A stretch of DNA of 64,000 nt from Candidatus Omnitrophota bacterium (GTDB lineage Bacteria; Omnitrophota; Gorgyraeia; Zapsychrales; Aceulaceae). How positions within the stretch are numbered: position 1 is the first letter of the stretch; every line of letters starts with the position of its first letter. Position numbers and translations under genes: made by a program. Shown one piece after another: positions 4,829-48,890 of the stretch. The DNA lies in contig JAKQPK010000013.1 of the NCBI GenBank assembly GCA_029564765.1, forward strand, positions 28,216-92,215, in the 5' to 3' direction. The notes beneath the pieces were generated by a model that saw nothing but the letters and a program-made list of their open reading frames with translations, had not been told where the DNA came from and searched no databases.

Positions 4829-5362
4829 ATGCTCTCTGAGCACCATATTAGAAATGACGCGTTACGTCGGATCGCTATCCAAATGATGATCGCAGCGCGC
4901 ACAGCCCCCAAAGGGCGAGGCGCGGATACCTTTATTTTTTATATTGCGGAAGAAAAAGATATAAAAAAGATATCCGATCGAATGCGCAGCATCGGACAGC
5001 AGCAAGATCTTCCCGCTTTTGTCAGGGACGCGGAAAATATCTTGATGGCGCCTGTCATGCTTTTGCTCGGGACGATGATCAAACCTTTAGGCTTGAAGAA
5101 GTGCGGGATGTGCGGATTTGCGAATTGCGCTGAAAAAGATAAGCATAAAAACATTCCATGTGTCTTTAACACAGGGGATCTGGGTATTGCTATCGGTTCG
5201 GCAGTGAGTGTTGCCGCTGATCATCGCGCGGATAACCGTGTGATGTATACAGCAGGCCAGGCGGCCCTTGAACTTGGACTGTTGGGCAGCGATGTGAAGA
5301 TCGCCTACGCGATCGCCTTAACTGCGATGTCAAAAAATCCGTTCTTTGATCGACCATTATAA
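4829..5362 (+). CDS. DUF2148-like ferredoxin-domain protein
   Basis: CGMCGFANC cysteine motif and an overall PKGRGAD...GIAIGSA layout that resembles the DUF2148 family. RBS GAAGGAGGGG precedes the ATG at 4829; the track ORF starts earlier at 4808. Confidence 0.5.
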   Translation: MLSEHHIRNDALRRIAIQMMIAARTAPKGRGADTFIFYIAEEKDIKKISDRMRSIGQQQDLPAFVRDAENILMAPVMLLLGTMIKPLGLKKCGMCGFANCAEKDKHKNIPCVFNTGDLGIAIGSAVSVAADHRADNRVMYTAGQAALELGLLGSDVKIAYAIALTAMSKNPFFDRPL

Positions 5363-5381
5363 AATGTAGCGTCGGGGAAGG

Positions 5382-5765
5382 CTATTCGCCCAAGAGCGAT
5401 CTGATCTTTTCCAGTAACAGCGATAGATCAAGGGGTTTGACTAGATAGGCATCCGCCCCAACATCCTGGCCGATCTGTTTGTCTTGGTCGCTATCGCGTG
5501 ATGTCAGCATGATGATCGGGATATTCTTGTGCTTAAGATCATTTTTAAGAAGCTGGCATAAATTGTATCCATTAATGATCGGCATCATGACATCTAGGAT
5601 GATCAGGTCGGGGCATGATTTCATGGCTTTTTGTAGGCCATCGGCTGCCTGTGTCGCGGCAAGGACGTCGTAGCCGTTTTCTGGAAGTTTTTTATCAAGT
5701 ATTTTGATCTGAGCGGGGTCATCATCTATGACAAGGATGACTTTTTTCTTGCTTTTTCTTAGCAT
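5382..5765 (-). CDS. Single-domain response regulator (CheY-like receiver)
   Basis: KKVILVIDDDPAQIK...LDVMMPIINGYNL...DAYLVKP receiver motifs. Start moved to the internal Met at 5765 because a TTGAAA-17-TACAAT promoter lies inside the longer track ORF (5382..5828). Confidence 0.7.
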   Translation of the reverse strand: MLRKSKKKVILVIDDDPAQIKILDKKLPENGYDVLAATQAADGLQKAMKSCPDLIILDVMMPIINGYNLCQLLKNDLKHKNIPIIMLTSRDSDQDKQIGQDVGADAYLVKPLDLSLLLEKIRSLLGE

Positions 5766-5878
5766 GAGCGTATTGTATAGCGATTTAAGAGGTGTTTCAA
5801 ATAAAATTTGGCCTATCAATAAAAACATTTTTATTAATATTGTTTATGCTACAATAATTTTTTATTTAAGGATTTGCT

Positions 5879-7120
5879 ATGATCAATCAAAAGAAAACAC
5901 CTGCTAAAAGCGTTTTGCGCATCAGCCAAGCTCAGGAAACCGATGTTTTGCGCAAGATCGTTGAGCTGACATCCTCAGGCCTTGAGCTTTCCTTGATCTT
6001 GTCGGAAGTCGTTAAGATCGTCAACGAGATCACGGTCTGTGATTCGGTCTTTGTTTATCTGGTCGATAACAAAGAAAAAGACCTTGTTCTCATGGCATCC
6101 AAAACCCCACATCTTAAAGAGCTTGGAAAGATCGTTCTAAAGATCGGAGAAGGGATCACGGGCTGGGTCGCTAGAGAAGGCCGGATTGTGAATATTAAAG
6201 AAGGCGCTTATAAAGATAAGCGTTTTAAGAGTTTTGATGTTTTGCCGGAGGATAAGTACGAGTCATTTTTGTCCGTCCCGATCGTTTATCGGACAAAAGT
6301 TACAGGGGTTTTGAATATTCAGCATAAAAAACCTTATTTGTATGCCCCGAAAACTGTTAATTTGTTGGCGATGATCGCCAAACAAGTCAGCGGGGTCATT
6401 GAGAACGCACGGTTGTATGATGAGACCAAGAAAAAAGCTGCTCAGTTCGATAAGCTGATCCAGGTAAGCCAGTCGATCACCTCAGAAAATTATTTAGATG
6501 AGATCCTCAACCTGATCGTCGTTGTGACGGCGGAAATGCTGAATTCCAAGATCTGCTCGATCATGCTGCTGGACGATAAGGGAAAAGAACTCGCGATCAA
6601 GGCGACGCAAAGCCTGAACGAAGATTATAAGAAAAAGCCAAATATCAAGGTTGATCAAAGCTTAAGCGGAGAAGTTGTCAAAACACGCACGCCTATTGTT
6701 GTTTTTGACGTGCGTCTCGAGGAGCGCTATGCCTATCGCGATCTCGCGATCAAAGAAGGCCTAAGCTCTATGCTCTCTGTGCCTATGATCGTAAAAGATA
6801 GGATCATCGGCATCATCAATGTTTACACCAAAGAACCGCATGAATTTTCACAAGAAGAGATCAATGTTTTGCAAATGGTTTCCAATCAGGCCGCTATCGC
6901 GGTCGAGAACACCAAGCTCATGGAGGAGACCTTAAAGGCCAAGGAGGCGCTAGAAACACGTAAGCTTGTTGAACGCGCCAAGGGCATTCTGATGAGATTG
7001 CAAAACCTCAGCGAAGAATCCGCGCACAAGCTGATCCACAAGAAAAGCATGGATTCATGTAAAACCATGAAAGATGTCGCTGAATCTATTATCTTGATGG
7101 ATGATCTGAACCGAAAATAG
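5879..7120 (+). CDS. GAF-GAF-ANTAR RNA-binding transcription antitermination regulator
   Basis: Two GAF-like blocks (about aa 20-170 and 190-340). C-terminal ANTAR signature ...LETRKLVERAKGILMRLQNLSEESAHKLIHKKSMDSCKTMKDVAESII, comparable to AmiR/NasR/EutV. Confidence 0.75.
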   Translation: MINQKKTPAKSVLRISQAQETDVLRKIVELTSSGLELSLILSEVVKIVNEITVCDSVFVYLVDNKEKDLVLMASKTPHLKELGKIVLKIGEGITGWVAREGRIVNIKEGAYKDKRFKSFDVLPEDKYESFLSVPIVYRTKVTGVLNIQHKKPYLYAPKTVNLLAMIAKQVSGVIENARLYDETKKKAAQFDKLIQVSQSITSENYLDEILNLIVVVTAEMLNSKICSIMLLDDKGKELAIKATQSLNEDYKKKPNIKVDQSLSGEVVKTRTPIVVFDVRLEERYAYRDLAIKEGLSSMLSVPMIVKDRIIGIINVYTKEPHEFSQEEINVLQMVSNQAAIAVENTKLMEETLKAKEALETRKLVERAKGILMRLQNLSEESAHKLIHKKSMDSCKTMKDVAESIILMDDLNRK

Positions 7121-7149
7121 CAGACGCTTGATCGTTTGCCCTAATCTTT

Positions 7150-8535
7150 ATGATCAAAAAAAGTTTTCGTCATCATGTCATGATCTTCTTGGCTGTGGGG
7201 ATCATCTTTGTCATGGCCCTTAGTGAATTCTTTATCTATCGCTTCGCCCTTGAAAAACAATTTGATCAGCTAAAAGAAAAACTTCAAGCCGTTGTCCAGA
7301 CAGCGTCTTTGATGATCGATCCCACCTTGATCGCTCAAGTGCCGTTGACCCCTGATGGGGCTGGAACTCCTCCATATCAGGCGCTTGCCGTTCAGCTGCA
7401 AAAGATCCAGGAAGCCAATCCTTTTTTAACGGATATCTATATCTTAAGGAAAACAGAAAAGCCAGGCATTTGGGAGTTTGTTGTGAATGTGGTTGCTGCT
7501 GGCATCAAAGGAGGCCAAGCGCCTATTCAGGCGCATCCAGGCCAGAAGTATGATGCCTCACGCTTTCCTGAGATGATACGTTCTTTTAAGGTCGCGACAA
7601 CAGATCAACAGTTGATAAAAGATGAATGGGGTACGACGTTATCAGGTTATGCCCCCATTATGGATCATAAAGGGAATTCTTTTGCGGTCTTGGGCATTGA
7701 TATTTCCGCGCAAGAAGTGTACGACATCCAGCGACAAGTTCATTGGCGGGCGATCCTTGTTTTCTTGATGGGTATGGCCTTGGCGATCATTTTAGGGTGG
7801 ATGATCGCCGGGCGTGTTACCTCGCGGATCAATAAGTTAGCCGAAGGAACGCAGCATCTTTCTTGTGATGATCTGGATTTTCGTGTTCAGGTGCAGGGAC
7901 AGGATGAGATCGCAGAACTCGCGCGGTCTTTTAATGTGATGGCCGCAGGATTAAAAGATGCTCGGCAGCGCTTGCGGGAATATTTTTGTTGTGTCGTTCA
8001 GTCTTTGGTCAAGGCCCTGGAAGCCAAGGATGCTTATACTAGCGGCCACTCAGAGCGTGTCGCCATGTATGCCAAGCAGATCGCTGTTGCCATGGATTTC
8101 TCTGAGGAAAAGGCAGACCTTTTGTTTCGTGTTGCCCAGCTTCATGATATTGGCAAGCTTAGCGTTCCTCAAGAGATCCTCAACAAAAAAGAAAGATTAA
8201 CCGATGAAGAGTGGGCTATTATTCGTCAACATCCTTTATCTGGAAGCAAGGTTGTTGAGCCTATCTTTCCCGATGCGCAGACGCTCTCTGTCGTGCGCTC
8301 ACATCACGAACGCTTTGATGGCAAGGGTTATCCAGATGGCGTTAAGGGAAGCCAGATCCCTTTGTTCGCGCAGATTGTCGCTGTTGCTGATGCCTACGAT
8401 GCCATGACATCTAATCGAGCGTATCGTCAGGCGTTGTCTTCTCAAGCTGTTCAAGATGAGCTGCTGCGTGGCTGCGGGACACAATTTAATGGGGATATCG
8501 TTAAGGTCTTTTTAAAAATTATCGATCAAAGTTGA
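7150..8535 (+). CDS. Membrane sensor with periplasmic Cache-like domain, HAMP and HD-GYP c-di-GMP phosphodiesterase domain
   Basis: N-terminal TM helix, a second TM helix near aa 200 followed by a HAMP-like linker, then HD-GYP motifs HSERV...HDIGKL...HHERFDGKGYPDG. Confidence 0.8.
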   Translation: MIKKSFRHHVMIFLAVGIIFVMALSEFFIYRFALEKQFDQLKEKLQAVVQTASLMIDPTLIAQVPLTPDGAGTPPYQALAVQLQKIQEANPFLTDIYILRKTEKPGIWEFVVNVVAAGIKGGQAPIQAHPGQKYDASRFPEMIRSFKVATTDQQLIKDEWGTTLSGYAPIMDHKGNSFAVLGIDISAQEVYDIQRQVHWRAILVFLMGMALAIILGWMIAGRVTSRINKLAEGTQHLSCDDLDFRVQVQGQDEIAELARSFNVMAAGLKDARQRLREYFCCVVQSLVKALEAKDAYTSGHSERVAMYAKQIAVAMDFSEEKADLLFRVAQLHDIGKLSVPQEILNKKERLTDEEWAIIRQHPLSGSKVVEPIFPDAQTLSVVRSHHERFDGKGYPDGVKGSQIPLFAQIVAVADAYDAMTSNRAYRQALSSQAVQDELLRGCGTQFNGDIVKVFLKIIDQS

Positions 8536-8664
8536 TTTGCGTTCTTAATGGCGGATCGCTTCGCCTTAGCGTGATCACGTTCAGGTTTTTTGATCTCTTC
8601 CGTCGATTAAACTATCAGCTGTTTGAAAAGTTTTAATACACGGATCTTCCAAGAAAAATTTTTA

Positions 8665-8693
8665 TTGACAAAGTAAAGAGCGAATTGTATATT
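8665..8693 (+). promoter_or_regulatory. Sigma70-type promoter (TTGACA, 17-nt spacer, TATATT) for the amtB-led operon
   Basis: Consensus -35 TTGACA at about 8665-8670 and -10 TATATT at about 8688-8693 with a 17-nt spacer. Predicted TSS about 8700, just before the tandem leader units. Confidence 0.6.
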
Positions 8694-8719
8694 TGTACCA
8701 ACAAGTAGGGCAACGAAGT

Positions 8720-8758
8720 CCTCTTAGACCTAATGAAGGGTTTAAGAGGTTTTATTTT
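8720..8758 (+). terminator. Intrinsic-terminator-like hairpin 1 (CCUCUUA...UAAGAGG then UUUUAUUUU)
   Basis: 7-bp stem with a loop that contains a second hexaloop hairpin ACCU-AAUGAA-GGGU, followed by a U-rich tract. Confidence 0.5.
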
Positions 8759-8772
8759 ACGGGCACAGAAGT

Positions 8773-8807
8773 CCGGCATCTCGGGAACCGAGTTGTCGGA
8801 TTTTTTT
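8773..8807 (+). terminator. Intrinsic-terminator-like hairpin 2 (CCGGCAUCUCGG-GAA-CCGAGUUGUCGG then UUUUUUU)
   Basis: Imperfect 12-bp stem and a 7-U tract. Confidence 0.5.
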
Positions 8808-8831
8808 ATGCTTCAAAGGTGGGCAATGAAG

Positions 8832-8880
8832 TCCTCAAGATAAGGCCAAAGAAGGCAAGAACTTAGCTTGAGGATTTTTT
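8832..8880 (+). terminator. Intrinsic-terminator-like hairpin 3 (UCCUCAAG...CUUGAGGA then UUUUUU)
   Basis: Perfect 8-bp stem. The loop contains the hexaloop hairpin GCC-AAAGAA-GGC. A U6 tract follows, about 40 nt before the amtB RBS. Confidence 0.55.
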
Positions 8881-8918
8881 CTTTTAGAAAAAATCCTCTC
8901 CAATCAAAGGAGGAGGTT

Positions 8919-10262
8919 ATGTGGCGAAGATTTTTCTCGGCTGTTAGGATTATAGGGTTGGTTATGCTGGGGCTTATGGCTTTACCAAGCCATAGCTTTG
9001 CTGAAGAGCCCGTTGCATGGGCAAGTCAGGTCGGATTGGATACTGTCTGGGTGTTGATCGCCGCGTTCTTGGTTTTTTTCATGCAAGCGGGCTTTGGGAT
9101 GGTAGAGGCCGGCTTTATCAGAGCCAAGAATACGTGCAATATCTTGACGAAAAACTTTTTGGATTTTTGTATGGCGTCGTTAGGTTTTTTTATTTTTGGC
9201 TACGCCATCATGTTCGGTCCAGGCAACGGCTTCATGGGGTTCAAGGGATGGTTTTTGGTGGGTGCTGAATCCGCTTCAAGCGTTCCCTTGTTCGCCTTTT
9301 GGTTGTTTCAAGCTGCTTTCTGCGGAGCTGCAGCCACGATCGTGGCTGGAGGCATGGCAGAGCGCATGAAATTTCAAGCTTACCTTATTTACTCGTTTGT
9401 GATCTCTGCCTTGATATATCCTATCATTGGTCATTGGGTTTGGGGTGGTGGATGGCTTGCTAAATTAGGTTTTATGGATTTCGCTGGCTCAACGGTTGTT
9501 CATGCCGTTGGTGGTTTTGCTGCCCTGATAGGAACGATCATTCTAAAACCAAGAACAGGCAAGTACAATCCGGATGGATCTGCAAATGCTATTGCCGGCC
9601 ATAATATTCCTCTCGCTTCTTTAGGGGTCTTTATCTTGTGGTTTGGCTGGTTTGGTTTCAATCCAGGATCTACGTTAAGCGTTGGGGATGGAGAGCTGAT
9701 CGGACGCGTCGCGATCAATACCAATTTAGCCGCGGCAACCGGAGGCATTATGGCTATGCTGATGGTTTGGAAGATGTTTGGAAAGCCTGATCTTTCGATG
9801 GCCATGAACGGTGCTTTGGCAGGATTGGTGGCTGTGACCGCTCCTTGCGCTTTTATCGATCCTTGGGCCGCTATCGTGATCGGAGGAGTAGGCGGGCTTA
9901 TCGTTGTTTTAGGGGTTGTGATCCTTGACAAGCTTCAGATCGATGATCCGGTCGGTGCTGTTCCCGTCCATGGTCTTAATGGTGTTTGGGGCACGCTTTC
10001 CATCGGTATTTTTGGTAAGGCAGCCTTGGGAGTTCCTTCCAGCGGCCTTTTGTATGGCGGAGGATTTTCTCAGCTTGGGATCCAGCTGTTAGGTGTTTTG
10101 GCTGCTGTTAGCTTTGTTGTTGTCACGATGGGACTTCTTTTTAAGATCGTTGATGCTACGATCGGGCTTCGTGTTTCGAAGGAAGAAGAATTCAAGGGTT
10201 TGGATATCGGAGAACATGGAATGGAATCTTACTCTGGCTTTCAAGTCTTTACGACCCAATAA
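8919..10262 (+). CDS. amtB: Ammonium transporter AmtB (Amt/MEP family) with signal peptide
   Basis: RBS GGAGGAGG plus ATG at 8919. Amt signature [26 protein letters not shown] and 11-TM topology. The track ORF begins earlier at TTG 8868. Confidence 0.9.
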
Positions 10263-10282
10263 GCCGGAGATCGGAGGTTAAT

Positions 10283-10624
10283 ATGAAATTAATTATCGCA
10301 ATGATCCAACCGCACAAATTGCCTGATGTCAAAAAAGCGCTGTTTGATGCACAAGTTCACAAAATGACGGTCACCAATGTGTTGGGATGCGGTCAGCAAA
10401 AAGGTTATAGTGAGACATATCGTGGCGTTATTCACGAGATCAATCTTCTGAAAAAAGTACGCCTTGAGATCGCAGTAAATGAAGACTTTGTAGAACCCAC
10501 AATTAACGCTATAATGAAAGGTGCTCGTAGCGGTAATGTGGGCGATGGCAAGGTGTTTGTCCTGGACTTGCCCCGCTGTATTCGCATCAGGACTGGGGAA
10601 GAAGGAAGGGAAGCCATCGGATAA
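10283..10624 (+). CDS. glnK: Nitrogen regulatory protein P-II (GlnK type, amtB-linked)
   Basis: [13 protein letters not shown]...[13 protein letters not shown] (T-loop with the conserved Tyr)...DGKVFV. Lies immediately downstream of amtB. Confidence 0.9.
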
Positions 10625-10659
10625 CCTTTGATCATGATCATCCTAAGGAGGAAAGGGCA

Positions 10660-12765
10660 ATGAAAGAAAAATTAGAAAAAGGACAAGGGAAAGAGCTCCA
10701 GGACTTGTACGGAGAGAATGTTTTCAGCCTGAAAGTAATGCGTAATTATCTTTCAGAGCCGGCCTACAAGTCTTTAAGCACGACGATCCGTACGGGTGGA
10801 ACGTTGGATCCGAGTATCGCTGATGAAGTTGCTGATGCGATGAAAACATGGGCGCTGTCCAAAGGGGCGACACATTTTACTCATTGGTTTCAGCCGTTAA
10901 CCGGCCTTACCGCGGAAAAACATGACGCATTCATCTCTCCCGATGGTGAGGGTGGAGCTATCTTGAAGTTTTCTGGCCAAGAGTTAACGCAAGGTGAACC
11001 AGATGCCTCTAGTTTTCCTTCGGGGGGATTACGTCCTACCTTTGAAGCGCGAGGATATACTGGATGGGATCCAACAAGCCCAGCATTCATCAAGGAAAGC
11101 CCTCAGGGCGCGACACTGTGCATTCCAACTTATTTTGTCGGTTGGCACGGCGAAGCTCTTGATAAGAAAACGCCACTTTTGCGTTCCATGAAGGCGTTGT
11201 CCAAACAAGTATGCCGACTGGCAGAGCTGTTTGGGATCAGCTCCAAGGGAAAGCAAGCTTATGCCACCTTAGGTGGAGAGCAAGAGTACTTCTTGATCGA
11301 TCGTGAGTATTACAATCAAAGGATCGATCTTATTCAGACCGGAAGGACCTTGTTTGGCAAGGAGCCTGCCAAACATCAACAGATGGCGGATCATTATTTT
11401 GGCGCCATCAAGACTCGTATTATCGCGTTCATGGAAGATCTTGATCGTGAGATGTGGAAGCTGGGTGTTCCTACCAAGACGCGCCATAATGAAGTTGCTC
11501 CTGCACAGTTTGAAGTCGCTCCGGTCTTTGAAAGTTTGAACTTGGCAGTTGACCACAACATGCTTTGCATGGAGATGCTTCAGAAAGTAGCTGAACGTCA
11601 CGGACTTGCTTGTCTGTTGCATGAAAAACCTTTCGCAGGCGTCAACGGCTCTGGAAAGCATAACAATTGGTCTATCGTTGGGCCTGACGATAAGAATTGG
11701 CTTTCCCCAGGAGAAAATCCACATGAGAACGCGAAGTTCTTGGTGACGTTGTGCGCGGTCATCAAGGCCGTTGACACGTACGCGGGGCTTTTACGATCAG
11801 GGGTTGCTTCCGCAGGTAACGATCATCGCCTTGGCTCACACGAGGCTCCTCCAGCGATCATCTCGATCTTCCTTGGCGATCAGCTGACAGATATTATTGA
11901 GCAGATCGAAAAAGGAGAGGCAAAGAGCTCTAAAAAAGGAGGCATCCTGGAGATCGGCGTTGATGTTCTTCCTAAGCTCCCACGGGATGCAACAGATCGC
12001 AACAGGACATCTCCTTTTGCTTTTACAGGGGCTAAGTTCGAGTTCCGCGCTGTAGGTTCGAACATGAGCTTAGGCGGGCCCAACATTATATTGAACACGA
12101 TCGTTGCTGAAAGCTTGGATGAGATCTGTACGATCTTAGAGGCGGACAAGAAAGCCAAGAAAGATTTTAACAGTTCTGTGCAAAAGCTTTTGCAGGCGAT
12201 CATCAAAAAGCATAAGCGTGTGATTTTTAATGGTGATAATTACACTGAAGACTGGGTCAAAGAAGCGAAAAAACGCGGCTTGCCTAATCTAAAGACGACA
12301 CCTGAGGCTTTGGCAGAACTTAAAGACCCTAAGGTTGCCGACCTTTTTGAGAAATATGGCGTATTGACCAAAAGAGAGCTTTTGTTGAGGCACGATGTTT
12401 ATAAAGAAACATATAGCACCATTCTTAATTATGAAGGACGCTTGGCCGTTAATATGGCTCAGACAATGATCATGCCTGCAGTTCTAAGTTATCAGCATGA
12501 GCTGTCTGAGACGATCAAGTCGATCGAAAGCGTGAATAAAACAAAAGCAAAGGCCTTAAGAGCGCTGCTAAAAGATATTTCTGGAAAGGCAGAAGAGGCT
12601 CTAGAGCTTGTTGCAAAGCTGGAAGAAGCTATTGCAAAAGAGAACACAGCAAAGATCAAGGAGGGAACCGCTGCGTTACGCGGTCCGATCGACGCTCTTG
12701 AAGGATTAGTGCCGGCAGATATTTGGCCGTTACCATCGTATGCTGAAATGTTGTTTAAATTCTGA
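10660..12765 (+). CDS. glnN: Glutamine synthetase type III (GSIII, GlnN)
   Basis: The 701-aa length and sequence pattern are typical of GSIII rather than the roughly 470-aa GSI. Immediately follows amtB-glnK. Confidence 0.75.
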
Positions 12766-15210: not shown

Positions 15211-15444
15211 ATGGCGCTAGAACAAAAAAAGAATAAAGTTGGCTCTCGAGTGGTAGATCATGATGCGCTGCGTATCGCGTATCGCGTGATCGTTGAGCGC
15301 GTAGAGAAAGGCTTGATCGAAAAAGCACTCGGGATCACGGCAGGAAACCAGATCGTTGCTGCCAAAGTGTTGGGCATTAATCGGAACACGATCCGTCATA
15401 AAATACGCAGGTTTGGCATCAAGGTTACGAGATTCAAAAAATGA
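15211..15444 (+). CDS. Small Fis-family HTH DNA-binding protein (stand-alone NtrC-C-terminal/Fis-type HTH)
   Basis: LIEKALGITAGNQIVAAKVLGINRNTIRHKIRRFGI matches the Fis/NtrC HTH_8 motif. Its start abuts the nadE stop and its stop overlaps the gltB start. Confidence 0.6.
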   Translation: MALEQKKNKVGSRVVDHDALRIAYRVIVERVEKGLIEKALGITAGNQIVAAKVLGINRNTIRHKIRRFGIKVTRFKK

Positions 15445-21463: not shown

Positions 21464-24124
21464 ATGAAACAAGATCATCTCGCGGCTAACACCGGACTTC
21501 CTGGCTTAGACGAGATCCTGCAAGGCGTACGCTTGGGGGATAATGTTGTTTTTCAGGTCGATAGCATTGATGATTATGCGTGTTTCGCGCATCCGTTCTG
21601 CCAAGGTGCCGTTAAAACCAAGAAAGACCTTATTTATTTTCGTTTCGCGCAGCATGCTTCTCTTCTCCCTCCCGGGGTTAGCGCGCATGTTTATGAGCTA
21701 AATCCAGAGGCGGGATTTGAGAGCTTCCTTTCTGAGATCTTTGCCGTGATCGAGAAATTCGGCAAAGGCGCTTTTTATGTTTTTGACTGTTTATCAGACC
21801 TGACCGCTGATTGGTATAGCGATCGTATGTTGGGAAATTTTTTCATGTTGACCTGTCCTTATCTGTACGATTTTGATACGGTCGCGTATTTTGCGTTGTT
21901 GCGCAACAATCACACACCACTAGCGACCGACGCGATCCATCGCACGGCTCAAGTTGTTCTAGATATTTATCAGGATAATGAGAGTTGCTATGTTCACCCG
22001 CTGAAGGTCCAAGGGCGATATTCTTCGATGATGTATATGTTGCACCGTTGGGAAGGCGATCAATTTCCAGCCGTTGTCCGTAGCTCTGAGACCGCCGAGA
22101 TCCTTTCAAAGGTAAGTCAGCCATGGTTGGATTTTACCATGCAGCGCCACGATGCTTGGGCGCGGAATTTTTTGCAAGCTCAGGAGGTCGTTAGCGCTAC
22201 ACGTTTCGACCGACAGGCCGCATGGAAAAACAGCAAACTGTTCCGTCATTTATTGCGCATGGCTGTGACCCGAGAGGAGCGTTTTCTTGAGCTGGCTGCT
22301 AAATATTTTGATTTTTCTGACGTGGTTGAAATAGGTAAGCGCATGATCGGGACTGGGCTGATCGGAGGAAAGTCCGTAGGTTTGCTGTTATCGCGCGCGA
22401 TATTAAAAAAAGAAGATCCGCGGCTTTCTGCTAAGCTTGAGCCTCATGATTCATTTTTTATCGGATCAGATGTTTTTTATACTTATTTGATCGAAAATCA
22501 ATGTTGGTGGATGCGGCGCGATCTTAGCGCCTCTGCCCCGAACTTCGCGGGCGCCCAAGAGCTTCAAGCGCGTATGCGCGCAGGATCTTTTCCTGCAGAT
22601 ATTAAAAATCAATTTATTGAGATGTTAGAATATTTTGGGCAGTCGCCGATCATTGTGCGTTCATCAAGCCTTCTGGAGGACGCGTATGGTAACGCTTTTT
22701 CTGGTAAATATGAAAGTGTTTTTTGTGTCAACCAGGGGACCCCGGAAGAACGTTTAGAAAGCTTTATGAACGCGGTCCGTACCGTGTACAGCAGCGCGGT
22801 CAGCAAGGACGCTTTGAGTTATCGCGCGCACTGGGGATTGCTTGATCAAGATGAGCAGATGGGGTTGCTGGTCCAACGCGTTTCAGGGTCTTTTTATGAG
22901 GGCCAATATTTCCCGCAGATCGCCGGTGTTGGCTTTTCTTTTAACCCTTATGTCTGGAGCAGCGACATTGATCCGGCGGCAGGATTTTTGCGCCTTGTTT
23001 TTGGTTTAGGAACTCGGGCTGTTGAGCGCGTGGATGATGATTATACCCGCATCATCGCCTTGAATGCTCCTACGCGCAGGCCGGAAGGAAGTCAGGAAGA
23101 TGTGCGCAAGCACACACAGCATAAGATCGATATTTTGGACCTTAAACAAAATCAGCCTGTGTCTCGCTCTTTTGAAGATGTCGTACGCCAGATCCCGCAA
23201 TTTCCATTGTCTATTTTTGCTTCTCAGGATGAAAGTATTGAGCGCTACGCGCGCGAACGCAATAAAGCAGATGTTTTTTCTTGGGTCTTGACCTTCGACG
23301 AGCTATTGTCGCGAACATCTTTCGTGAGCGATATGCGCGCGATGATGAGCATCCTACAGAAAGCTTATGATTATCCAGTCGATATTGAATTTACAATGAA
23401 TTTCTCGGACAACGAAAAATATAGGATCAATTTACTGCAGTGCCGTCCTTTTCAAGTGAAAGGGAATATTTTAAGCATTGAAGCGCCGCAGGATCTGGCC
23501 AAGGAGAAGGTGTTGCTGGAAACTAAAGGGCCTGTGATCGGCAGCAGTCTTGCGACGACCATCGATCGCATTATTTATATTGTCCCTGAACATTATGCCA
23601 AACTTAGCATGGCGGATCGCTATGCGGTTGCGCGGTTGATAGGCCGATTGACCCATCTACCTGAACAAGGCAGGAAGTTAACGATCATGCTGATCGGACC
23701 TGGCCGCTGGGCAACAAGCTCTCCGGAAATGGGCGTTCCAGTCTCCTTCGCTGAGATCAACACGGTTTCAGTTCTTTGTGAAGTCGTGATGATGCATGAG
23801 CATTTGGTCCCGGAAGTTTCCCTGGGGACGCATTTTTTTAATGATCTCGTTGAGATGGACATGTTATATTTTGCCCTTCATCCTGAGCGTTATGATAATA
23901 TTTTGCGCAGTGAATTCTTTCAGGGATCGCGCAATCAGCTTGAACATTTATTGAAAGACGCGTCTTCTTTGAGTTCCGTTGTTCGCGTGATCGATGCTCA
24001 AGAGATCCCGGGAGAACGTATTTGTTTAAGCGCGGATGTGACAAAACAAAGCGCTATCTGTTATCTGGGGGATGTTCCGCTATCTGTTGACAATGACAAG
24101 CCTGCGGCAAGCATGAGGAAATGA
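21464..24124 (+). CDS. KaiC/RecA-like (no P-loop) N-terminal domain fused to a PEP/pyruvate-binding (PPDK_N ATP-grasp) domain; unknown function
   Basis: N-terminus TGLPGLDEILQGVRLGDNVVFQVDS resembles the KaiC/Rad55 fold but lacks Walker A. Central IGTGLIGGKSVGLLLSRAI resembles the GGK motif of PEP synthase/PPDK nucleotide-binding domains. No His swivel domain is visible. Confidence 0.5.
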   Translation: MKQDHLAANTGLPGLDEILQGVRLGDNVVFQVDSIDDYACFAHPFCQGAVKTKKDLIYFRFAQHASLLPPGVSAHVYELNPEAGFESFLSEIFAVIEKFGKGAFYVFDCLSDLTADWYSDRMLGNFFMLTCPYLYDFDTVAYFALLRNNHTPLATDAIHRTAQVVLDIYQDNESCYVHPLKVQGRYSSMMYMLHRWEGDQFPAVVRSSETAEILSKVSQPWLDFTMQRHDAWARNFLQAQEVVSATRFDRQAAWKNSKLFRHLLRMAVTREERFLELAAKYFDFSDVVEIGKRMIGTGLIGGKSVGLLLSRAILKKEDPRLSAKLEPHDSFFIGSDVFYTYLIENQCWWMRRDLSASAPNFAGAQELQARMRAGSFPADIKNQFIEMLEYFGQSPIIVRSSSLLEDAYGNAFSGKYESVFCVNQGTPEERLESFMNAVRTVYSSAVSKDALSYRAHWGLLDQDEQMGLLVQRVSGSFYEGQYFPQIAGVGFSFNPYVWSSDIDPAAGFLRLVFGLGTRAVERVDDDYTRIIALNAPTRRPEGSQEDVRKHTQHKIDILDLKQNQPVSRSFEDVVRQIPQFPLSIFASQDESIERYARERNKADVFSWVLTFDELLSRTSFVSDMRAMMSILQKAYDYPVDIEFTMNFSDNEKYRINLLQCRPFQVKGNILSIEAPQDLAKEKVLLETKGPVIGSSLATTIDRIIYIVPEHYAKLSMADRYAVARLIGRLTHLPEQGRKLTIMLIGPGRWATSSPEMGVPVSFAEINTVSVLCEVVMMHEHLVPEVSLGTHFFNDLVEMDMLYFALHPERYDNILRSEFFQGSRNQLEHLLKDASSLSSVVRVIDAQEIPGERICLSADVTKQSAICYLGDVPLSVDNDKPAASMRK

Positions 24125-38677: not shown

Positions 38678-40231
38678 CTATCCTTGTTTTTCTGTTTTTT
38701 CTTTCTGCGCTTCATTCGTTGGCTCTAGTTTCGCAGGCTCAAGAGGTATCGTGAAGTGAAAGGTCGTGCCTTCACCGATCTTGCTCGTGACCCAGATCGT
38801 TCCCTGATGCGCGTTGATGATATTTTTTACCAGAGCCAGCCCTAAACCAGTGCCTTTAATGTTCTGATTAAGCTCATTCTCGACACGGTAAAATTCAGTG
38901 AATAGCCTTGGCATGTCTTCTTCGCGCATGCCAGCGCCAGTGTCCTGCACTTGCACGTTTACTTCTTTATCATTGCCGGAAGCGCGAATGGTGATCGTAC
39001 CCTTGGGTGTATACTTGATCGCATTACTGAGCAGATTGATAAATACGCGTTCCAGCTGTTTGCTGTCAGCCAGGACCAACGGAAGGTCATCAGAGACTTC
39101 TGTAATGAAGGTGATATTTTTTTCGCGCATTTGGGGCATCAGAAGATCCCGCATGTTTTCAATGAGCATTCTTAAGTTTACTTTCTCAAATTTCATTTCA
39201 ACGCGGCCTGACTCAATTCTGGCGATATCCAGAAGGTCATTGATCAACTCGACCAAGCTGTCTGAATGCTTGTTGATCTTCTCTAGGCGCTCTTTGACTT
39301 TTTCCGGGATCTCACCAAGCTTGCCAGACATCAAAATAGCTGCATACCCTTTGATCGATGTGAGCGGGGTCCTTAGCTCATGAGACACGGCGGAGACAAA
39401 TTCAGATTTTGTCCGGCTTATTTTTTGTACTTTTTCAAGGGCTAACGCAAGTTGACGGGTGCGATCCTGGATCTTTAGTTCCAACTCTTGGCGGGATTTA
39501 TAAACTTCTTCAAAAAGCTTAGCGTTTTCTAAAGATTGTCCGATTTGATTCGTGAGGATAGATATCATTTCTTCGTCTGCTTCTGAGATAGGCGTTGTTT
39601 CTGTCTGATTGCCAACAAAGATAACGCCCATAGTTCCATCTTGGGTTAAGATAGGAGCTAAGATAAAATGTGGGATTCCGAACACGCTGATGGCTTTTTC
39701 TTTTTTTTGCTTTGAGGCGGTAGCCGAAGAAAATGGATATCCTTCTTGCAGGACAGAATTAAAGGACGTATCCTTTAAAAGATCATTCGTGATTTCTGAG
39801 ACTTGATCATTGCCAAACCCTGTATTCACGCGCATGCGTAGATTTCTTTCTTCATCAAATGTCAGGACAAGGATTCGCTCGAATCCTAGCTGTAGCATCA
39901 GGGACTTGTCAAGGCGGCGAAAGATCTCCTCCTCGTCTAGGGTTGTACTGATCAATCGTGAAGTTCTCTGCAGAGCGTCTAGGCTCGCAAGGCGCCGGTC
40001 AAGCTCTTCTTGCGCGCGGTTTAGCTCAAGGTCGGTCTTAAGGATCAGCTTTGCTTGTTCATCAAGACTGTTAAAAGATAGCTTCAGTTTCTTCAGCGCA
40101 TCTTGCAGTTCTTTGACCTGATCGATCTTGTTAATAAGAAAGAAAATGAGTGTACCGATCGTTCCTAAAACGATCACGGCAATAACCGCAAAGATAGTTG
40201 TATCGACCGCCGAGCTTGTGATATTTAGCAT
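38678..40231 (-). CDS. Sensor histidine kinase (TM, coiled coil, GAF, HisKA, HATPase_c)
   Basis: HELRTPLTSIKGY H-box, an N-box ...LLSNAIKYT, G-boxes DTGAGM and GTGLGLALV. An N-terminal TM helix and a GAF-like region. Confidence 0.85.
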   Translation of the reverse strand: MLNITSSAVDTTIFAVIAVIVLGTIGTLIFFLINKIDQVKELQDALKKLKLSFNSLDEQAKLILKTDLELNRAQEELDRRLASLDALQRTSRLISTTLDEEEIFRRLDKSLMLQLGFERILVLTFDEERNLRMRVNTGFGNDQVSEITNDLLKDTSFNSVLQEGYPFSSATASKQKKEKAISVFGIPHFILAPILTQDGTMGVIFVGNQTETTPISEADEEMISILTNQIGQSLENAKLFEEVYKSRQELELKIQDRTRQLALALEKVQKISRTKSEFVSAVSHELRTPLTSIKGYAAILMSGKLGEIPEKVKERLEKINKHSDSLVELINDLLDIARIESGRVEMKFEKVNLRMLIENMRDLLMPQMREKNITFITEVSDDLPLVLADSKQLERVFINLLSNAIKYTPKGTITIRASGNDKEVNVQVQDTGAGMREEDMPRLFTEFYRVENELNQNIKGTGLGLALVKNIINAHQGTIWVTSKIGEGTTFHFTIPLEPAKLEPTNEAQKEKTEKQG

Positions 40232-40290
40232 AAGATCATTTCTGTGCTATACCAAGACTATCATCCAAGAGTTTTCTTGGCAAGATGAAA

Positions 40291-41499
40291 CTAATGGGTT
40301 TTGTGTTGCGCGAGAGCCAAGATATTGATCGTTCCGTTTTGTAAAAAGCAAGGACTGCCGCGCTCTGTCGTGCTTAGTGGCGCGAACTCTCCATAGGTGT
40401 ACATTCCAAAGACCGGAATATGATCGCCAAAGACTTCTTTGACCGCTTGAACCTCTTGAAAGGCGCTTCGCCCTAATAATTTTTGACGTGCCACAGACTC
40501 AAAAATAGCCACAAGTTCTGCGGGACGGCCTAAAAGCGCGTCTTTGGCCTCGCGGGCTGCCTGAACAGCCGCTTGTTTGCAAGAATCTTTATTTCCGATC
40601 ATGATATGAACTTCTGCTCCCTGAGGCACTTCTCCTTGGCAGACCAAGCTGCCGTCTTCTAGGACATTCACAATATGGTTTAAGATGTATTTCTGTTGTT
40701 CTTCGATCAAAACCCCCAGAGGATAAAATAAGCGCGCACGATTGAGGCGATTAAGAAAAAGTAGGGAGGCTTGCTCACCAAAAAATTCTTCGTAAAGAGA
40801 GATCGCTTTTTTACCATTGATCCTATGGATCACGTTGCGGTCCGTCCGATCAGCAATGCGTGGCTTGCCCAGAGGCTTCCACCCGTGCTGACTGGAAAGG
40901 CCAACGGCTATTTGCCCGCCGATCATTAAGGCACAGGCGGCATCAGTGGTGACATCGCCGTTAAAATATTGATAGGTTTTCTGGTAATGGAAGTTATCGA
41001 AGCTTCCTCCTCCGACGATTGGTGAAAATTGTCCAAACGACTCTTTCAGCCCTCTTAGCAAAAGAGGTCCTTTCGCGGAGAGGCCATCAAAGAAGACGAG
41101 CGAAAGCTGACGTGGGTTCATGCCAAAATCTTTTAAGACTTTACGCGCAAGCTCGCGGGAGGCAACTTCCGGGTTCTGCTCCTCCAAGTTTTTGATCAAG
41201 GCAGAGCCAAATTGAATTTGTTTTGAGGCGCCGCTGATCGTCATAACGGCGATCCCCGTTGATTCAATAGAACCTGAGAGGATAATACCGCTTGTAGAGG
41301 CTCCGATCGTTCTCGCGTCCGGAAAAATATCTTTAACGACAGCAAGAGCTTCTAAACGGCTATACGCAGCCGTTGCGTATACCAAAACAAGGTCTGCTGG
41401 TTCTTGGTTGATCTGGATCTTGGCTTGCGCCGACGCATCTTGAGCGGCACGGTAGGGGTTTTCATTTTTGCTGAAGCCAATTCCGACGAGTAGGGGCAT
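40291..41499 (-). CDS. FIST-domain sensor protein (FIST_N plus FIST_C)
   Basis: Length and motifs are typical of FIST sensory proteins. It lies upstream of, and co-oriented with, the histidine kinase. Confidence 0.6.
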   Translation of the reverse strand: MPLLVGIGFSKNENPYRAAQDASAQAKIQINQEPADLVLVYATAAYSRLEALAVVKDIFPDARTIGASTSGIILSGSIESTGIAVMTISGASKQIQFGSALIKNLEEQNPEVASRELARKVLKDFGMNPRQLSLVFFDGLSAKGPLLLRGLKESFGQFSPIVGGGSFDNFHYQKTYQYFNGDVTTDAACALMIGGQIAVGLSSQHGWKPLGKPRIADRTDRNVIHRINGKKAISLYEEFFGEQASLLFLNRLNRARLFYPLGVLIEEQQKYILNHIVNVLEDGSLVCQGEVPQGAEVHIMIGNKDSCKQAAVQAAREAKDALLGRPAELVAIFESVARQKLLGRSAFQEVQAVKEVFGDHIPVFGMYTYGEFAPLSTTERGSPCFLQNGTINILALAQHKTH

Positions 41500-48518: not shown

Positions 48519-48890
48519 ATGGAACGTAAGAAAACGATCCTTTTTGTGGAAGATGAATCTGACCTGCGGATGCTGGTCGCGGAAGAACTTTCAGGCCTTG
48601 GCTATCATGTTATGGAGGCCGATGATGGAGAAGAGGCGATGGCCTGTTTTGAAAAGGTCATACCGGATCTTATCATTACGGATATCGTTATGCCCAAGAT
48701 GCACGGCGATGAGCTTGTTAGAGCTGTACGGGCTTTGGACCAAGGTAAGAAGATCCCTATCATTGTTGTAAGCGCCTACGCGCCTAAAGAAAAAGCCTTA
48801 AGTGGTTTTGAGGGTGTCTCGATCATCGAAAAGCCTTTCTCTGTGGACCAGCTTCTTTCTATGGTCCAAGATCTTCTTGCGGAAAAGTGA
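48519..48890 (+). CDS. Single-domain response regulator (CheY-like receiver)
   Basis: KTILFVEDESDLR...IITDIVMPKMHG...IIVVSAY receiver motifs. Directly downstream of the histidine kinase. Confidence 0.85.
   Translation: MERKKTILFVEDESDLRMLVAEELSGLGYHVMEADDGEEAMACFEKVIPDLIITDIVMPKMHGDELVRAVRALDQGKKIPIIVVSAYAPKEKALSGFEGVSIIEKPFSVDQLLSMVQDLLAEK

Follow-up and report, generated by a model that had tools for sequence, protein, structure and literature searches.

Three stacked hexaloop hairpin-terminator units form a candidate ANTAR-type attenuator upstream of amtB-glnK in an Omnitrophota bacterium

Introduction

How does a bacterium of the phylum Omnitrophota decide when to express its nitrogen assimilation genes? 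Nitrogen control in Omnitrophota and in Nitrospirota, including the environmentally important nitrite-oxidizing Nitrospira, is essentially uncharacterized. We analyzed a 64,000-nucleotide (nt) stretch of DNA from a Candidatus Omnitrophota bacterium (GenBank assembly GCA_029564765.1, contig JAKQPK010000013.1, positions 28,216 to 92,215 of the forward strand), which we call the window and number from its first nucleotide. An initial annotation, made from the sequence alone, had drawn attention to the leader in front of amtB and glnK. It proposed that three tandem hairpin-terminator units in this leader are antiterminated by an ANTAR-domain protein with two GAF domains that is encoded upstream.

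We found that this leader feature is real and conserved, and it is almost certainly regulatory for nitrogen assimilation. Its anatomy and distribution make ANTAR-type control very probable. We also judged it likely, on the same kind of evidence, that the leader is a protein-dependent, ANTAR-type transcription attenuator run by the upstream GAF-GAF-ANTAR protein.

Results

Three hexaloop hairpins follow a near-consensus promoter

A sigma-70-type promoter (TTGACA, 17-nt spacer, TATATT) lies at 8665-8693 on the plus strand. It matches the consensus at 11/12 positions and is the sole site of that quality on this strand within 5000-11000. Transcription is predicted to start near 8700, about 7 nt ahead of the first hairpin. 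We found GGGCANNGAAGTCC exactly three times in the window, at 8708, 8761, and 8821, always on the plus strand, and every unit of the leader opens with GGGCANNGAAGUCC at these positions. When one mismatch was allowed, the chance expectation for this 14-mer over the whole window was 0.26, and at least 4 matches were reached in 0/100 shuffles. A fourth site with one mismatch, at 15563, is located within gltB and was rejected as chance.

The 14-mer GGGC-ANNGAA-GUCC folds as a 4-bp stem (G-C, G-C, G.U, C-G) that closes a hexaloop whose positions 1 and 4 are A and G (A1/G4). The three plus-strand hairpins are GGGC-AACGAA-GUCC in unit 1 (8708-8721), GGGC-ACAGAA-GUCC in unit 2 (8761-8774), and GGGC-AAUGAA-GUCC in unit 3 (8821-8834). 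They scored 25.6, 20.1, and 22.1 bits, respectively, with the covariance model described below. The A1 and G4 residues that mark ANTAR hexaloops (Ramesh 2012; Walshe 2022) were present in 3/3 units. A scan of the window with the unit covariance model at E<1 returned the three known sites only, spaced 53-60 nt apart.

Glutamine riboswitches precede nitrogen genes in other phyla, and riboswitches can occur in tandem. It could therefore be asked whether the leader is itself a metabolite riboswitch, for example a glutamine-binding one, or some other RNA switch that works without protein. We searched the leader against Rfam at E<=10 and obtained chance-level matches only, the best being bglG-cis-reg with 23.5 bits against a gathering score of 80; in the whole window, only two tRNAs reached the gathering score. 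The conserved part of each unit is a 14-nt hairpin, which is too small for an aptamer, and the rest of the unit varies freely. We concluded that a protein-independent switch has a next to negligible chance of being correct. Leader-peptide attenuation was likewise rejected; the small open reading frames (ORFs) in 8536-8918 lack a convincing start context, and they overlap the hairpins.

One further A1/G4 hexaloop hairpin, GGCGG-AUCGCU-UCGCC, lies at 8549-8564 on the plus strand, directly 3' of the stop codon of the preceding gene. A weak hairpin and a U6 run come next. The hexaloop hairpin is off the GGRC/GUCC consensus and may be chance.

Each hairpin runs into a predicted terminator

Three candidate intrinsic terminators, T1 to T3, follow on the plus strand. 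T1 occupies 8720-8758, with its stem at 8720-8749 and the U run UUUUAUUUU at 8750-8758. T2 occupies 8768-8807, with GAAGUCCGGCA.. paired to ..UGUCGGAUUUU, a GAA apical loop, and a U7 run at 8801-8807. T3 occupies 8828-8880, with the 5' arm GUCCUCAAG at 8831-8839, the 3' arm CUUGAGGA at 8867-8874, and a U6 run at 8875-8880. The units folded at -18.5 (z -4.0), -26.8 (z -5.6), and -21.4 kcal/mol (z -3.2) in order, and the whole leader folded at -79 kcal/mol (z -5.4). A simple terminator scanner picked up T1 only; T2 contains an internal mismatch, and the top of T3 is branched. RNAalifold recovered T1, T2, and T3 on five orthologous leaders, and each of the three has a stable stem-loop, a U run of 6-9, and compensatory changes. 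Taken together, these data make it highly likely that the leader contains three functional terminators.

In all three units, the GUCC arm of the 14-mer is also the 5' base of the terminator. In the minimum-energy folds, the T2 and T3 stems begin inside the 14-mer, with (G)AAGUCC paired to GGAUUU(U). Because the terminator stems begin within the 14-mer, the hexaloop hairpin and the terminator base are alternatives, and in these folds the terminators win over the 14-mer hairpins when nothing helps the latter.

Two units carry a second hexaloop hairpin. In unit 1, ACCU-AAUGAA-GGGU (8728-8741, plus strand) lies 6 nt downstream of the first and forms the apex of T1. In unit 3, GCC-AAAGAA-GGC (8845-8856, plus strand) lies 10 nt downstream, within the apex of T3. 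Both are compatible with the terminator. Unit 2 has no second hexaloop, and its apex is a GAA triloop.

Most of the anatomy in the initial annotation thus held up: the promoter, the three units with their A1/G4 hexaloops, the second hexaloops in units 1 and 3, and the overlap of the GUCC arm with the 5' arm of the terminator. It had also called the terminator hairpins GC rich. All three hairpins with their U runs are there, and the description "GC rich" applies in part; only 5/12 pairs of T1 are G-C. One label has to be reversed. The hairpin that was termed "first" corresponds in function to the canonical P2, which competes with the terminator, and the "second" is the terminator apex.

The triple leader is conserved in orthologous contigs

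We compared the leader with those of related contigs, which we denote by L numbers. The regulator of L001 is 98% identical to that of the window, and the two are practically the same organism. Over 187 nt, they differ at five positions, which fall upstream of the -35 element, within the spacer of the promoter, at a loop position that is free to vary, and in T2, where a G-C pair is changed to G-U. The sole change in the unit 1 hairpin is at loop position 2, a free position. The unit 2 sequence GGGCACAGAAGUCC is identical in L001, L098, and L104.

In more distant contigs, the arrangement persisted. L098/L112 encode a regulator that is 82% identical and have the same HD-GYP gene, followed by three units and then amtB, glnK, the type III glutamine synthetase (GS) gene, a glutamine amidotransferase (GATase) gene, and nadE. 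The regulator is 83% identical in L104/L173, 82% in L171, and 72% in L194, where three units stand immediately before the type III GS gene. L133 has four hairpins, of which the first two form a canonical P1-13 nt-P2/terminator. The regulator gene stands just before the leader in 5/5 orthologous contigs with room upstream, and an ANTAR gene is also nearby in most of the 80 regulator-selected loci described below.

The promoter is conserved as well. We found TTGACA-17-TATAnT 11-14 nt before hairpin 1 in L001, L004, L012, L014, L098, L104, L133, L171, and L194. This position puts hairpin 1 at the 5' end of the RNA and so leaves it without a possible upstream partner.

RNAalifold on five triple leaders returned exactly three terminators, with 45 pairs, nine of which showed compensatory double changes. 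The lower stems of this consensus take in GAAGUCC of the 14-mer, again with (G)AAGUCC paired to GGAUUU(U). All 12 pairs of T1 are kept across the orthologs. Its apical hexaloop reads AAUGAA, AUCGAA, GUUGAA, AAUGAA, and AAUGAA in the five sequences, and the stem beneath varies. The upper stem of T2 shows compensatory changes from CG to UA in two sequences, from UA to CG, and from GC to AU. The outer stem of T3 is conserved with compensatory changes; its inner hexaloop is less conserved, since L098 has GAUGUU there and none is evident in L171 or L194. Covariation, to which the initial annotation had looked, is therefore found for the terminators; for the hexaloop stem it is thin, as discussed below.

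Omnitrophota amtB leaders as a rule have arrays of two to four units, and L008 has four. The triple array is thus the upper range of a common design and not a singularity.

Terminators are common after genes, and the gene upstream of the leader ends 170 nt before it. The units might accordingly be constitutive terminators or insulators that shield amtB or lower its expression, with the 14-mer as a nonregulatory repeat; loose versions of the hairpin do occur in unrelated metagenome tandem repeats. Several findings argue against this explanation. The terminator sequences diverge around a constant 14-mer, and the units occur specifically with nitrogen genes and in genomes that carry the regulator. 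Since the gene upstream is separated from unit 1 by the conserved near-consensus promoter, the terminators lie within the amtB transcript. If three unconditional terminators followed a strong promoter, essential assimilation genes would stay silent. We consider the insulator explanation very improbable.

The loose hairpins came from a scan of metagenome contigs with a loose tandem pattern. Only about 10/119 matches were nitrogen leaders, among them the orthologous leaders compared above, and the remaining ones were near-identical tandem repeats, some of them tRNA derived. We therefore rejected the loose pattern as a diagnostic and did not use it for counting. Among these unrelated contigs were arrays of 3-8 near-identical GGAC-ANNGAN-GUCC hexaloop hairpins with periods of 21, 58, 46, and 52 nt and without U runs. 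They lie on the motif strand at L096 556-700 (seven copies back to back), L099 2936-3180, L145 5610-5860, L087 725-1015, and L198 223-340; a tRNA-derived array in L160 is probably irrelevant. The U-run-free arrays could be decoys for ANTAR proteins or plain satellite repeats. The EutX/Rli55 RNA of the eut system would be a comparable sponge.

The single unit accompanies regulator orthologs in two phyla

We then considered 80 genomic loci that were picked by the regulator protein alone, with one genome per species. The pattern GGRC-ANNGAA-GUYC was restricted to the strand of the regulator in these loci, as was GGRC-ANNGNN-GUCC. When we counted A1/G4 hexaloop hairpins whose 3' arm starts a terminator, about 70 GGRC/GUCC units were on the plus strand versus one weak unit on the minus strand. 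A covariance model built from 57 units gave 52 matches on the plus strand versus 3 on the minus strand in the Omnitrophota set (p = 1.5e-12). We also searched Omnitrophota with the stem only. A1 and G4 were both present in 37/54 sites, compared with 2/19 on the opposite strand (p = 1e-5), and G4 was present in 48/54.

The genes that follow the units point to the same process. The first long ORFs 3' of 41 unit groups encode AmtB (10), GS (9), glutamine-dependent NadE (7), a few sensor proteins, two porins, and the regulator itself (1). Such hairpins are found beside regulator orthologs and before amtB, GS, and nadE genes in two phyla; the initial annotation had suggested looking through the genome for further hairpin pairs before nitrogen genes. 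In the one case before a regulator gene, the hairpin-terminator unit is at L025 83-130, upstream of the GAF-GAF-ANTAR gene, which suggests autoregulation of that gene in the L025 genome.

The loops differ by phylum. Omnitrophota use ANNGAA, and Nitrospirota use AANGGC or AAUGAC, which almost matches the site of the Geobacter protein GnfR. In Nitrospirota, a single GGAC-AANGGC-GUCC hairpin with a terminator stands about 100 nt after the regulator stop codon, and nadE is next in several loci. This regulator-then-unit arrangement is present at about 11320-11940 in L050, L059, L060, L073, L077, L079, and L080, at 12268-12400 in L068, and at 4651-4790 in L071. Ten other Nitrospirota leaders, before amtB or GS genes, show the canonical dual layout, in which two hairpins spaced 38-49 nt share a single terminator.

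An A1/G4 hexaloop at the terminator apex, as in units 1 and 3, was found in 5/34 Omnitrophota units versus 5/571 other terminators (p = 9e-5), an enrichment of about 20-fold; this is the strict figure, and counting by minimum-energy folds misses loops in which A1 and U6 can pair.

As DNA, the GGAC-N6-GTCC form of Nitrospirota is perfectly palindromic, and it resembles GGAA-N6-TTCC operators such as that of NrpR. The motif (GGRC-N6-GYCC) might then be a DNA operator for a dimeric factor that controls initiation or acts as a roadblock, and the gene string downstream does encode a candidate, a 77-amino-acid (aa) Fis/NtrC-type helix-turn-helix (HTH) ORF at 15211-15444. The commonest Omnitrophota form, GGGC/GTCC, is not a DNA palindrome and pairs only as RNA, through G.U. 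Moreover, the spacer is conserved asymmetrically (A1, G4, A5) and strand specifically, and the sites lie downstream of the transcription start, always fused to the 5' arm of a terminator. A DNA operator is thus extremely improbable. The asymmetric loop, together with the G.U pair in the commonest stem, led us to read the signal as RNA.

The upstream gene encodes a GAF-GAF-ANTAR protein

The gene at 5879-7120 (plus strand) encodes a one-component protein of 413 aa, the presumed antiterminator. As the initial annotation had it, the protein has two GAF domains and an ANTAR domain; Pfam matched the GAF domains with 134 bits and ANTAR (PF03861) with 71.5 bits against a cutoff of 27.3. The ANTAR domain aligns with those of Rv1626, EutV, and NasR at E values of 1e-7 to 2e-9 (NasR, 1e-7). 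In an AlphaFold2 model (pLDDT 80), long helices connect the tandem GAF domains to a C-terminal three-helix ANTAR domain (325-375, 379-393, and 397-412). The model resembles the dimeric GAF tandems of PDE5, PDE2, and CyaB2. In EutV, R142 and K149 hold the hexaloop G4, and Tyr164 stacks on it (PMC8934654). The first two residues correspond to R361 and K368 here, with the numbering offset inferred from the alignment, and both are invariant among 21 homologs.

Both GAF domains are closest to that of PtsP/EI-Ntr. GAF1 matched Protein Data Bank entry 3ci6, the PtsP/EI-Ntr GAF, with an E value of 3e-23, and GAF2 matched 3trc with 1e-14. Foldseek comparison with 3ci6 gave a TM score of 0.89-0.92, a root mean square deviation of 2.0-2.2, and an identity of 33-35%. 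NCBIfam PRK11061 matched with 136 bits over two stretches, under the full-length cutoff as expected for a domain-only match, and the next-best NCBIfam was NifA, with 92.6 bits. Nitrogen sensing by the GAF domains, which the initial annotation had offered as a guess, gains homology support from this order of relatives. The GAF domain of NifA binds 2-oxoglutarate. That of EI-Ntr binds glutamine and thereby reports nitrogen status (PMC4848567). We tentatively propose glutamine or 2-oxoglutarate as the ligand here, with a confidence somewhat below even.

Homologs of the regulator are annotated as Candidatus Omnitrophota at about 65-74% identity; at about 47-54%, they are found in Nitrospirota (Nitrospira, Manganitrophaceae), a few Acidobacteria, and Elusimicrobia.

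Might these be true ANTAR-type attenuators on which another ANTAR regulator acts, such as a GnfR-like REC-ANTAR protein encoded elsewhere, with the GAF-GAF-ANTAR protein merely coregulated or serving other targets? The window covers 64 kb of the genome. The proven GnfR of Geobacter is a REC-ANTAR protein encoded away from its targets (PMC2995071), and ANTAR domains are thought to show little specialized RNA specificity (PMC7496416). In contrast, regulator and leader are syntenic in the 5/5 orthologous contigs and across two phyla, down to the Nitrospirota unit that comes about 100 nt after the regulator stop codon, and we found no other ANTAR protein among the ORFs scanned in the 64-kb window. 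A separate ANTAR partner is therefore improbable, and genomic context points to the GAF-GAF-ANTAR protein of 5879-7120 as the likely regulator of the leader.

A fourth hairpin may affect amtB translation

Past the third terminator, we found a 13-bp hairpin, H4 (GAGGAUUUUUUCU-UUU-AGAAAAAAUCCUC; 8870-8898, plus strand; about -17 kcal/mol). H4 reuses the 3' arm and the U run of T3, and its own 3' arm overlaps the anti-Shine-Dalgarno stretch CCUCUCC (8895-8901). The amtB Shine-Dalgarno sequence, AGGAGGAGG, is at 8908-8916 (plus strand), and the ATG start codon is at 8919-8921. H4 is kept with matched U-run and A-run lengths in L098 (U5/A5) and L171 (U4/A4), is partial in L194, and is absent from L104 and L133. 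If the T3 3' arm is free, H4 folds and leaves the Shine-Dalgarno sequence open. If that arm is withheld, (A)UCCUC(C) in the 3' arm of H4 is predicted to pair with the Shine-Dalgarno sequence instead, at -8 to -10 kcal/mol in each of the three sequences. H4 could thus tie amtB translation to the antitermination state, an idea that is weak because the full-length minimum-energy fold holds H4 even without protein.

The leader precedes a long string of nitrogen and glutamine genes

The genes downstream, whose expression the leader presumably gates, form a co-directional string at 8919-33151 on the plus strand, defined by Pfam and NCBIfam matches. It begins with amtB (8919-10262, plus strand; Pfam Ammonium_transp, 446 bits, frame confirmed) and the P-II gene glnK (10283-10624, plus strand; Pfam). 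Genes for GS type III, a class-I GATase, a glutamine-dependent NadE, and the small Fis-type HTH protein come next, followed by gltB, gltD, a gene for a PPDK_N-domain protein, carA, carB, purF, pyrG, and a gene for a 543-aa protein. One co-directional block thus unites ammonium uptake, GS/GOGAT, and most of the major glutamine amidotransferases (nadE, carAB, purF, pyrG, and the class-I GATase).

Several features make co-transcription of this approximately 24-kb string, as first annotated, plausible. The sole apparent gap (232 nt) is filled by the 77-aa Fis/NtrC C-terminal HTH ORF on the plus strand (NCBIfam E of 1e-10, below the cutoff), and the other gaps are short. The first strong terminator is at 33276, 3' of a tRNA, and no intergenic terminator precedes it. 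The order amtB-glnK-GSIII-GATase-nadE-gltBD is common to L112, L171, and L173. Counts of internal promoters and terminators equaled the shuffled expectation, with none intergenic, which shows only that the string has no obvious break.

Between the regulator gene and the leader, a plus-strand gene at 7150-8535 encodes a HAMP-HD-GYP-type membrane protein (Pfam HAMP and HD_5/HD). Its best NCBIfam match was the HD-GYP cyclic di-GMP (c-di-GMP) phosphodiesterase domain (NosR family), with 137 bits, below the cutoff. The gene is in the same position in L098/L112 and absent from L104, L171, L173, and L194. Its product may belong to the signaling module.

We also noted several features of the surrounding DNA. 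The 543-aa protein (31520-33151, plus strand) and a 552-aa protein (33351-35009, plus strand) flank the tRNA at 33181-33262, and neither matches Pfam or NCBIfam. An 886-aa protein (21464-24124, plus strand) between gltD and carA has PPDK_N, a phosphoenolpyruvate-utilizing, ATP-binding domain, as its sole Pfam match. A minus-strand signaling cluster at 37739-41499 encodes a FIST-domain protein, a GAF-HisKA-HATPase kinase, and a REC-GGDEF response regulator. Genes for single-domain REC proteins are at 223-984, 5382-5828, and 48519-48890.

Discussion

We propose that transcription of the leader starts at a strong and probably constitutive sigma-70 promoter and that the default fold of the RNA would be three serial intrinsic terminators, so that almost no polymerase would reach amtB if the regulator is missing. 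The active GAF-GAF-ANTAR protein, probably a dimer, would capture and stabilize each GGGC-ANNGAA-GUCC hairpin as it emerges from the polymerase, and in units 1 and 3 it would probably bind the hexaloop at the terminator apex too. A bound hairpin would keep GUCC (and GAA) out of the terminator base beside the U run, and read-through would result. Nitrogen status would probably be read directly by the GAF domains, via glutamine and/or 2-oxoglutarate. We infer that the OFF state would be very tight and the response steep, because read-through must succeed three times. The genes regulated suggest that the operon is ON at low nitrogen, and we moderately favor expression under nitrogen limitation (low glutamine or high 2-oxoglutarate).

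The antitermination reading of the initial annotation is supported by the fit of the motif, by its strand-specific conservation near regulator orthologs, and by the compensatory changes in the terminators. A number of points weigh against our proposal or parts of it. The two-hairpin arrangement of classical ANTAR targets (in tandem, with a short linker, and with the second hairpin overlapping the terminator) is not found in this leader. Unit 2 has a single hairpin, and the second hexaloops of units 1 and 3 are inside the terminator and do not compete with it. In unit 1, the strict overlap between the hairpin and T1 is two G-C pairs only (two C residues). The position of EutV Tyr164 is occupied by a nearly invariant histidine, His387, and by Phe in Rv1626 and Trp in NasR. 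Covariation of the stem P1 showed 100% pairing and 9 double-change cells, and it is thin; the units in the alignment had been chosen for pairing, and the stem is itself conserved in sequence. For these two reasons, we gave the P1 covariation little weight and relied instead on strand bias, loop asymmetry, and terminator covariation. The 64 kb of genome covered means that an ANTAR protein elsewhere could be the true partner. With many glutamine-consuming enzymes encoded in the operon, it is not obvious in which direction regulation would go. As for the ligand, the overall fold of the tandem GAF is equally similar to that of cyclic-nucleotide sensors, and the HD-GYP gene adjoins; these two facts make a nucleotide second messenger possible. 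Binding of c-di-GMP has been reported for another ANTAR protein, NasT (PMC10783516), which makes such an input conceivable. Finally, the organism is uncultured and known from metagenome assemblies only.

A broader reading can be built on the same observations. The GAF-GAF-ANTAR family would be a nitrogen master regulator that directly senses glutamine or 2-oxoglutarate and acts on stacked single-hexaloop attenuators with multiplying read-through, with H4 gating translation. The protein could be handed from hairpin to hairpin, over 53-60 nt here and over 38-49 nt at the dual sites of Nitrospirota. The 3' arm of T3 would serve as an anti-anti-Shine-Dalgarno sequence via H4, and antiterminated transcripts alone would be translated. 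The family may be common to Omnitrophota, Nitrospirota (Nitrospira nitrite oxidizers and Manganitrophaceae), some Acidobacteriota, and Elusimicrobiota. As a whole, this reading is rather unlikely.

The proposed attenuator matters for several reasons. The locus, the 80 loci, and the metagenome contigs together indicate one conserved RNA-level circuit before the genes for AmtB, glutamine synthetase, and NAD synthetase. For the GAF-ANTAR architecture, the locus provides a first candidate target as well as a candidate class of ligand. The stacked single-hairpin units also bear on a question raised by the EutV-RNA structure, namely, whether one hexaloop is enough for co-transcriptional antitermination. 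The value is incremental and involves no new principle.

The GAF-ANTAR architecture was called common but unstudied in reviews up to 2020 and 2025 (PMC7496416, PMC12591593), and a 2020 paper gave only PAL and NasR as one-component ANTAR proteins. A full-text literature search returned no paper that connects ANTAR with Nitrospira/Nitrospirota or Omnitrophota, and we found no description of a GAF-GAF-ANTAR one-component regulator, triple-stacked single-hairpin units, an apex-nested hexaloop, or translation coupling. The initial annotation knew of no case of three serial ANTAR attenuators under a GAF-ANTAR protein before a glutamine-metabolism operon of this size; this novelty claim was overstated in view of GnfR at glnK-amtB (PMC2995071), the tandem predictions of 2012 (PMC3369931), and the triple and quadruple arrays elsewhere in Omnitrophota.

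Those predictions, from the study that defined the dual-hairpin motif, put ANTAR sites in front of genes for ammonium transporters, P-II, GS, and GOGAT in many bacteria (Ramesh 2012; PMC3369931, Table S2). They include Desulfotomaculum acetoxidans, in which two sites, 1043787-1043837 and 1043969-1044020, are predicted 130-250 nt apart before one operon (PMC3369931, Table S2). The gene classes are the same as ours, and tandem sites in one leader are a shared feature. The searches required a dual-hairpin model, and no GAF-ANTAR protein was characterized then (PMC3369931). In the Ramesh 2012 tables, we found no entries for Nitrospirota/Nitrospira, Omnitrophota, Acidobacteria, Elusimicrobia/Elusimicrobium, or NAD synthetase.

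Among one-component systems, NasR (NIT-ANTAR) at nasF is similar in that an antiterminator directly senses a nitrogen compound and acts on a leader terminator of a nitrogen assimilation operon. NasR/nasF and AmiR/amiE differ in their sensor, which is a NIT domain (nitrate/nitrite) or the partner AmiC and not a tandem GAF, and in their single-terminator leaders. Serial, independent attenuators are familiar from tandem riboswitches and T-boxes, where they give tighter, more switch-like control; Welz and Breaker in 2007 reportedly gave an example for tandem riboswitches. The likeness lies in the serial arrangement. Riboswitches and T-boxes are ligand- or tRNA-binding RNAs and not protein-dependent ANTAR units.

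In the eut genes of Enterococcus faecalis, EutV/EutW act on a dual-hexaloop target in which the second hairpin overlaps the terminator, and both hairpins are needed for antitermination (PMC3369931, PMC8934654). Walshe 2022 found that an ANTAR dimer makes contact with only one hexaloop at any given time and revised the minimal site to a single hexaloop (PMC8934654). The eut system and our leader share A1/G4 hexaloops, a hairpin and a terminator that exclude each other, and several attenuators per gene set (four in eut). The eut hairpins are joined by a short linker, whereas here the competing hairpin stands alone (unit 2) or with an apex-nested hexaloop (units 1 and 3). In eut, the attenuators are distributed over the locus, whereas ours are stacked in one leader.

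The nearest precedent is GnfK/GnfR of Geobacter sulfurreducens, which controls antitermination at the nifH, nifEN, and glnK-amtB leaders (Ueki and Lovley 2010, PMC2995071) and bears out the statement in the initial annotation that an ANTAR response regulator acts on Geobacter nitrogen genes. GnfR binds a single 14-mer, CAGGCAANGGCGCC (GGC-AANGGC-GCC hexaloop, A1/G4), that overlaps the 5' arm of the terminator; its RNA binding depends on phosphorylation, and mutants terminate prematurely (PMC2995071). Our leader shares with GnfR targets the single 14-mer hexaloop per terminator, the overlap of its 3' part with the terminator, and the association with nitrogen leaders, including that of glnK-amtB; the Nitrospirota unit GGAC-AAUGGC-GUCC has nearly the same loop. 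GnfR is a kinase-activated REC-ANTAR protein acting behind RpoN promoters, in contrast to the one-component tandem-GAF-ANTAR protein, the sigma-70 promoter, and the three serial units of our system, which is known from sequence. On sequence grounds, we concluded that the leader is closest to the GnfR type of ANTAR attenuator. The tandem-GAF sensor, the stacked single-hairpin units, the terminator-nested hexaloop, and the lineages are new, and the mechanism itself is a conserved variant of a known one.

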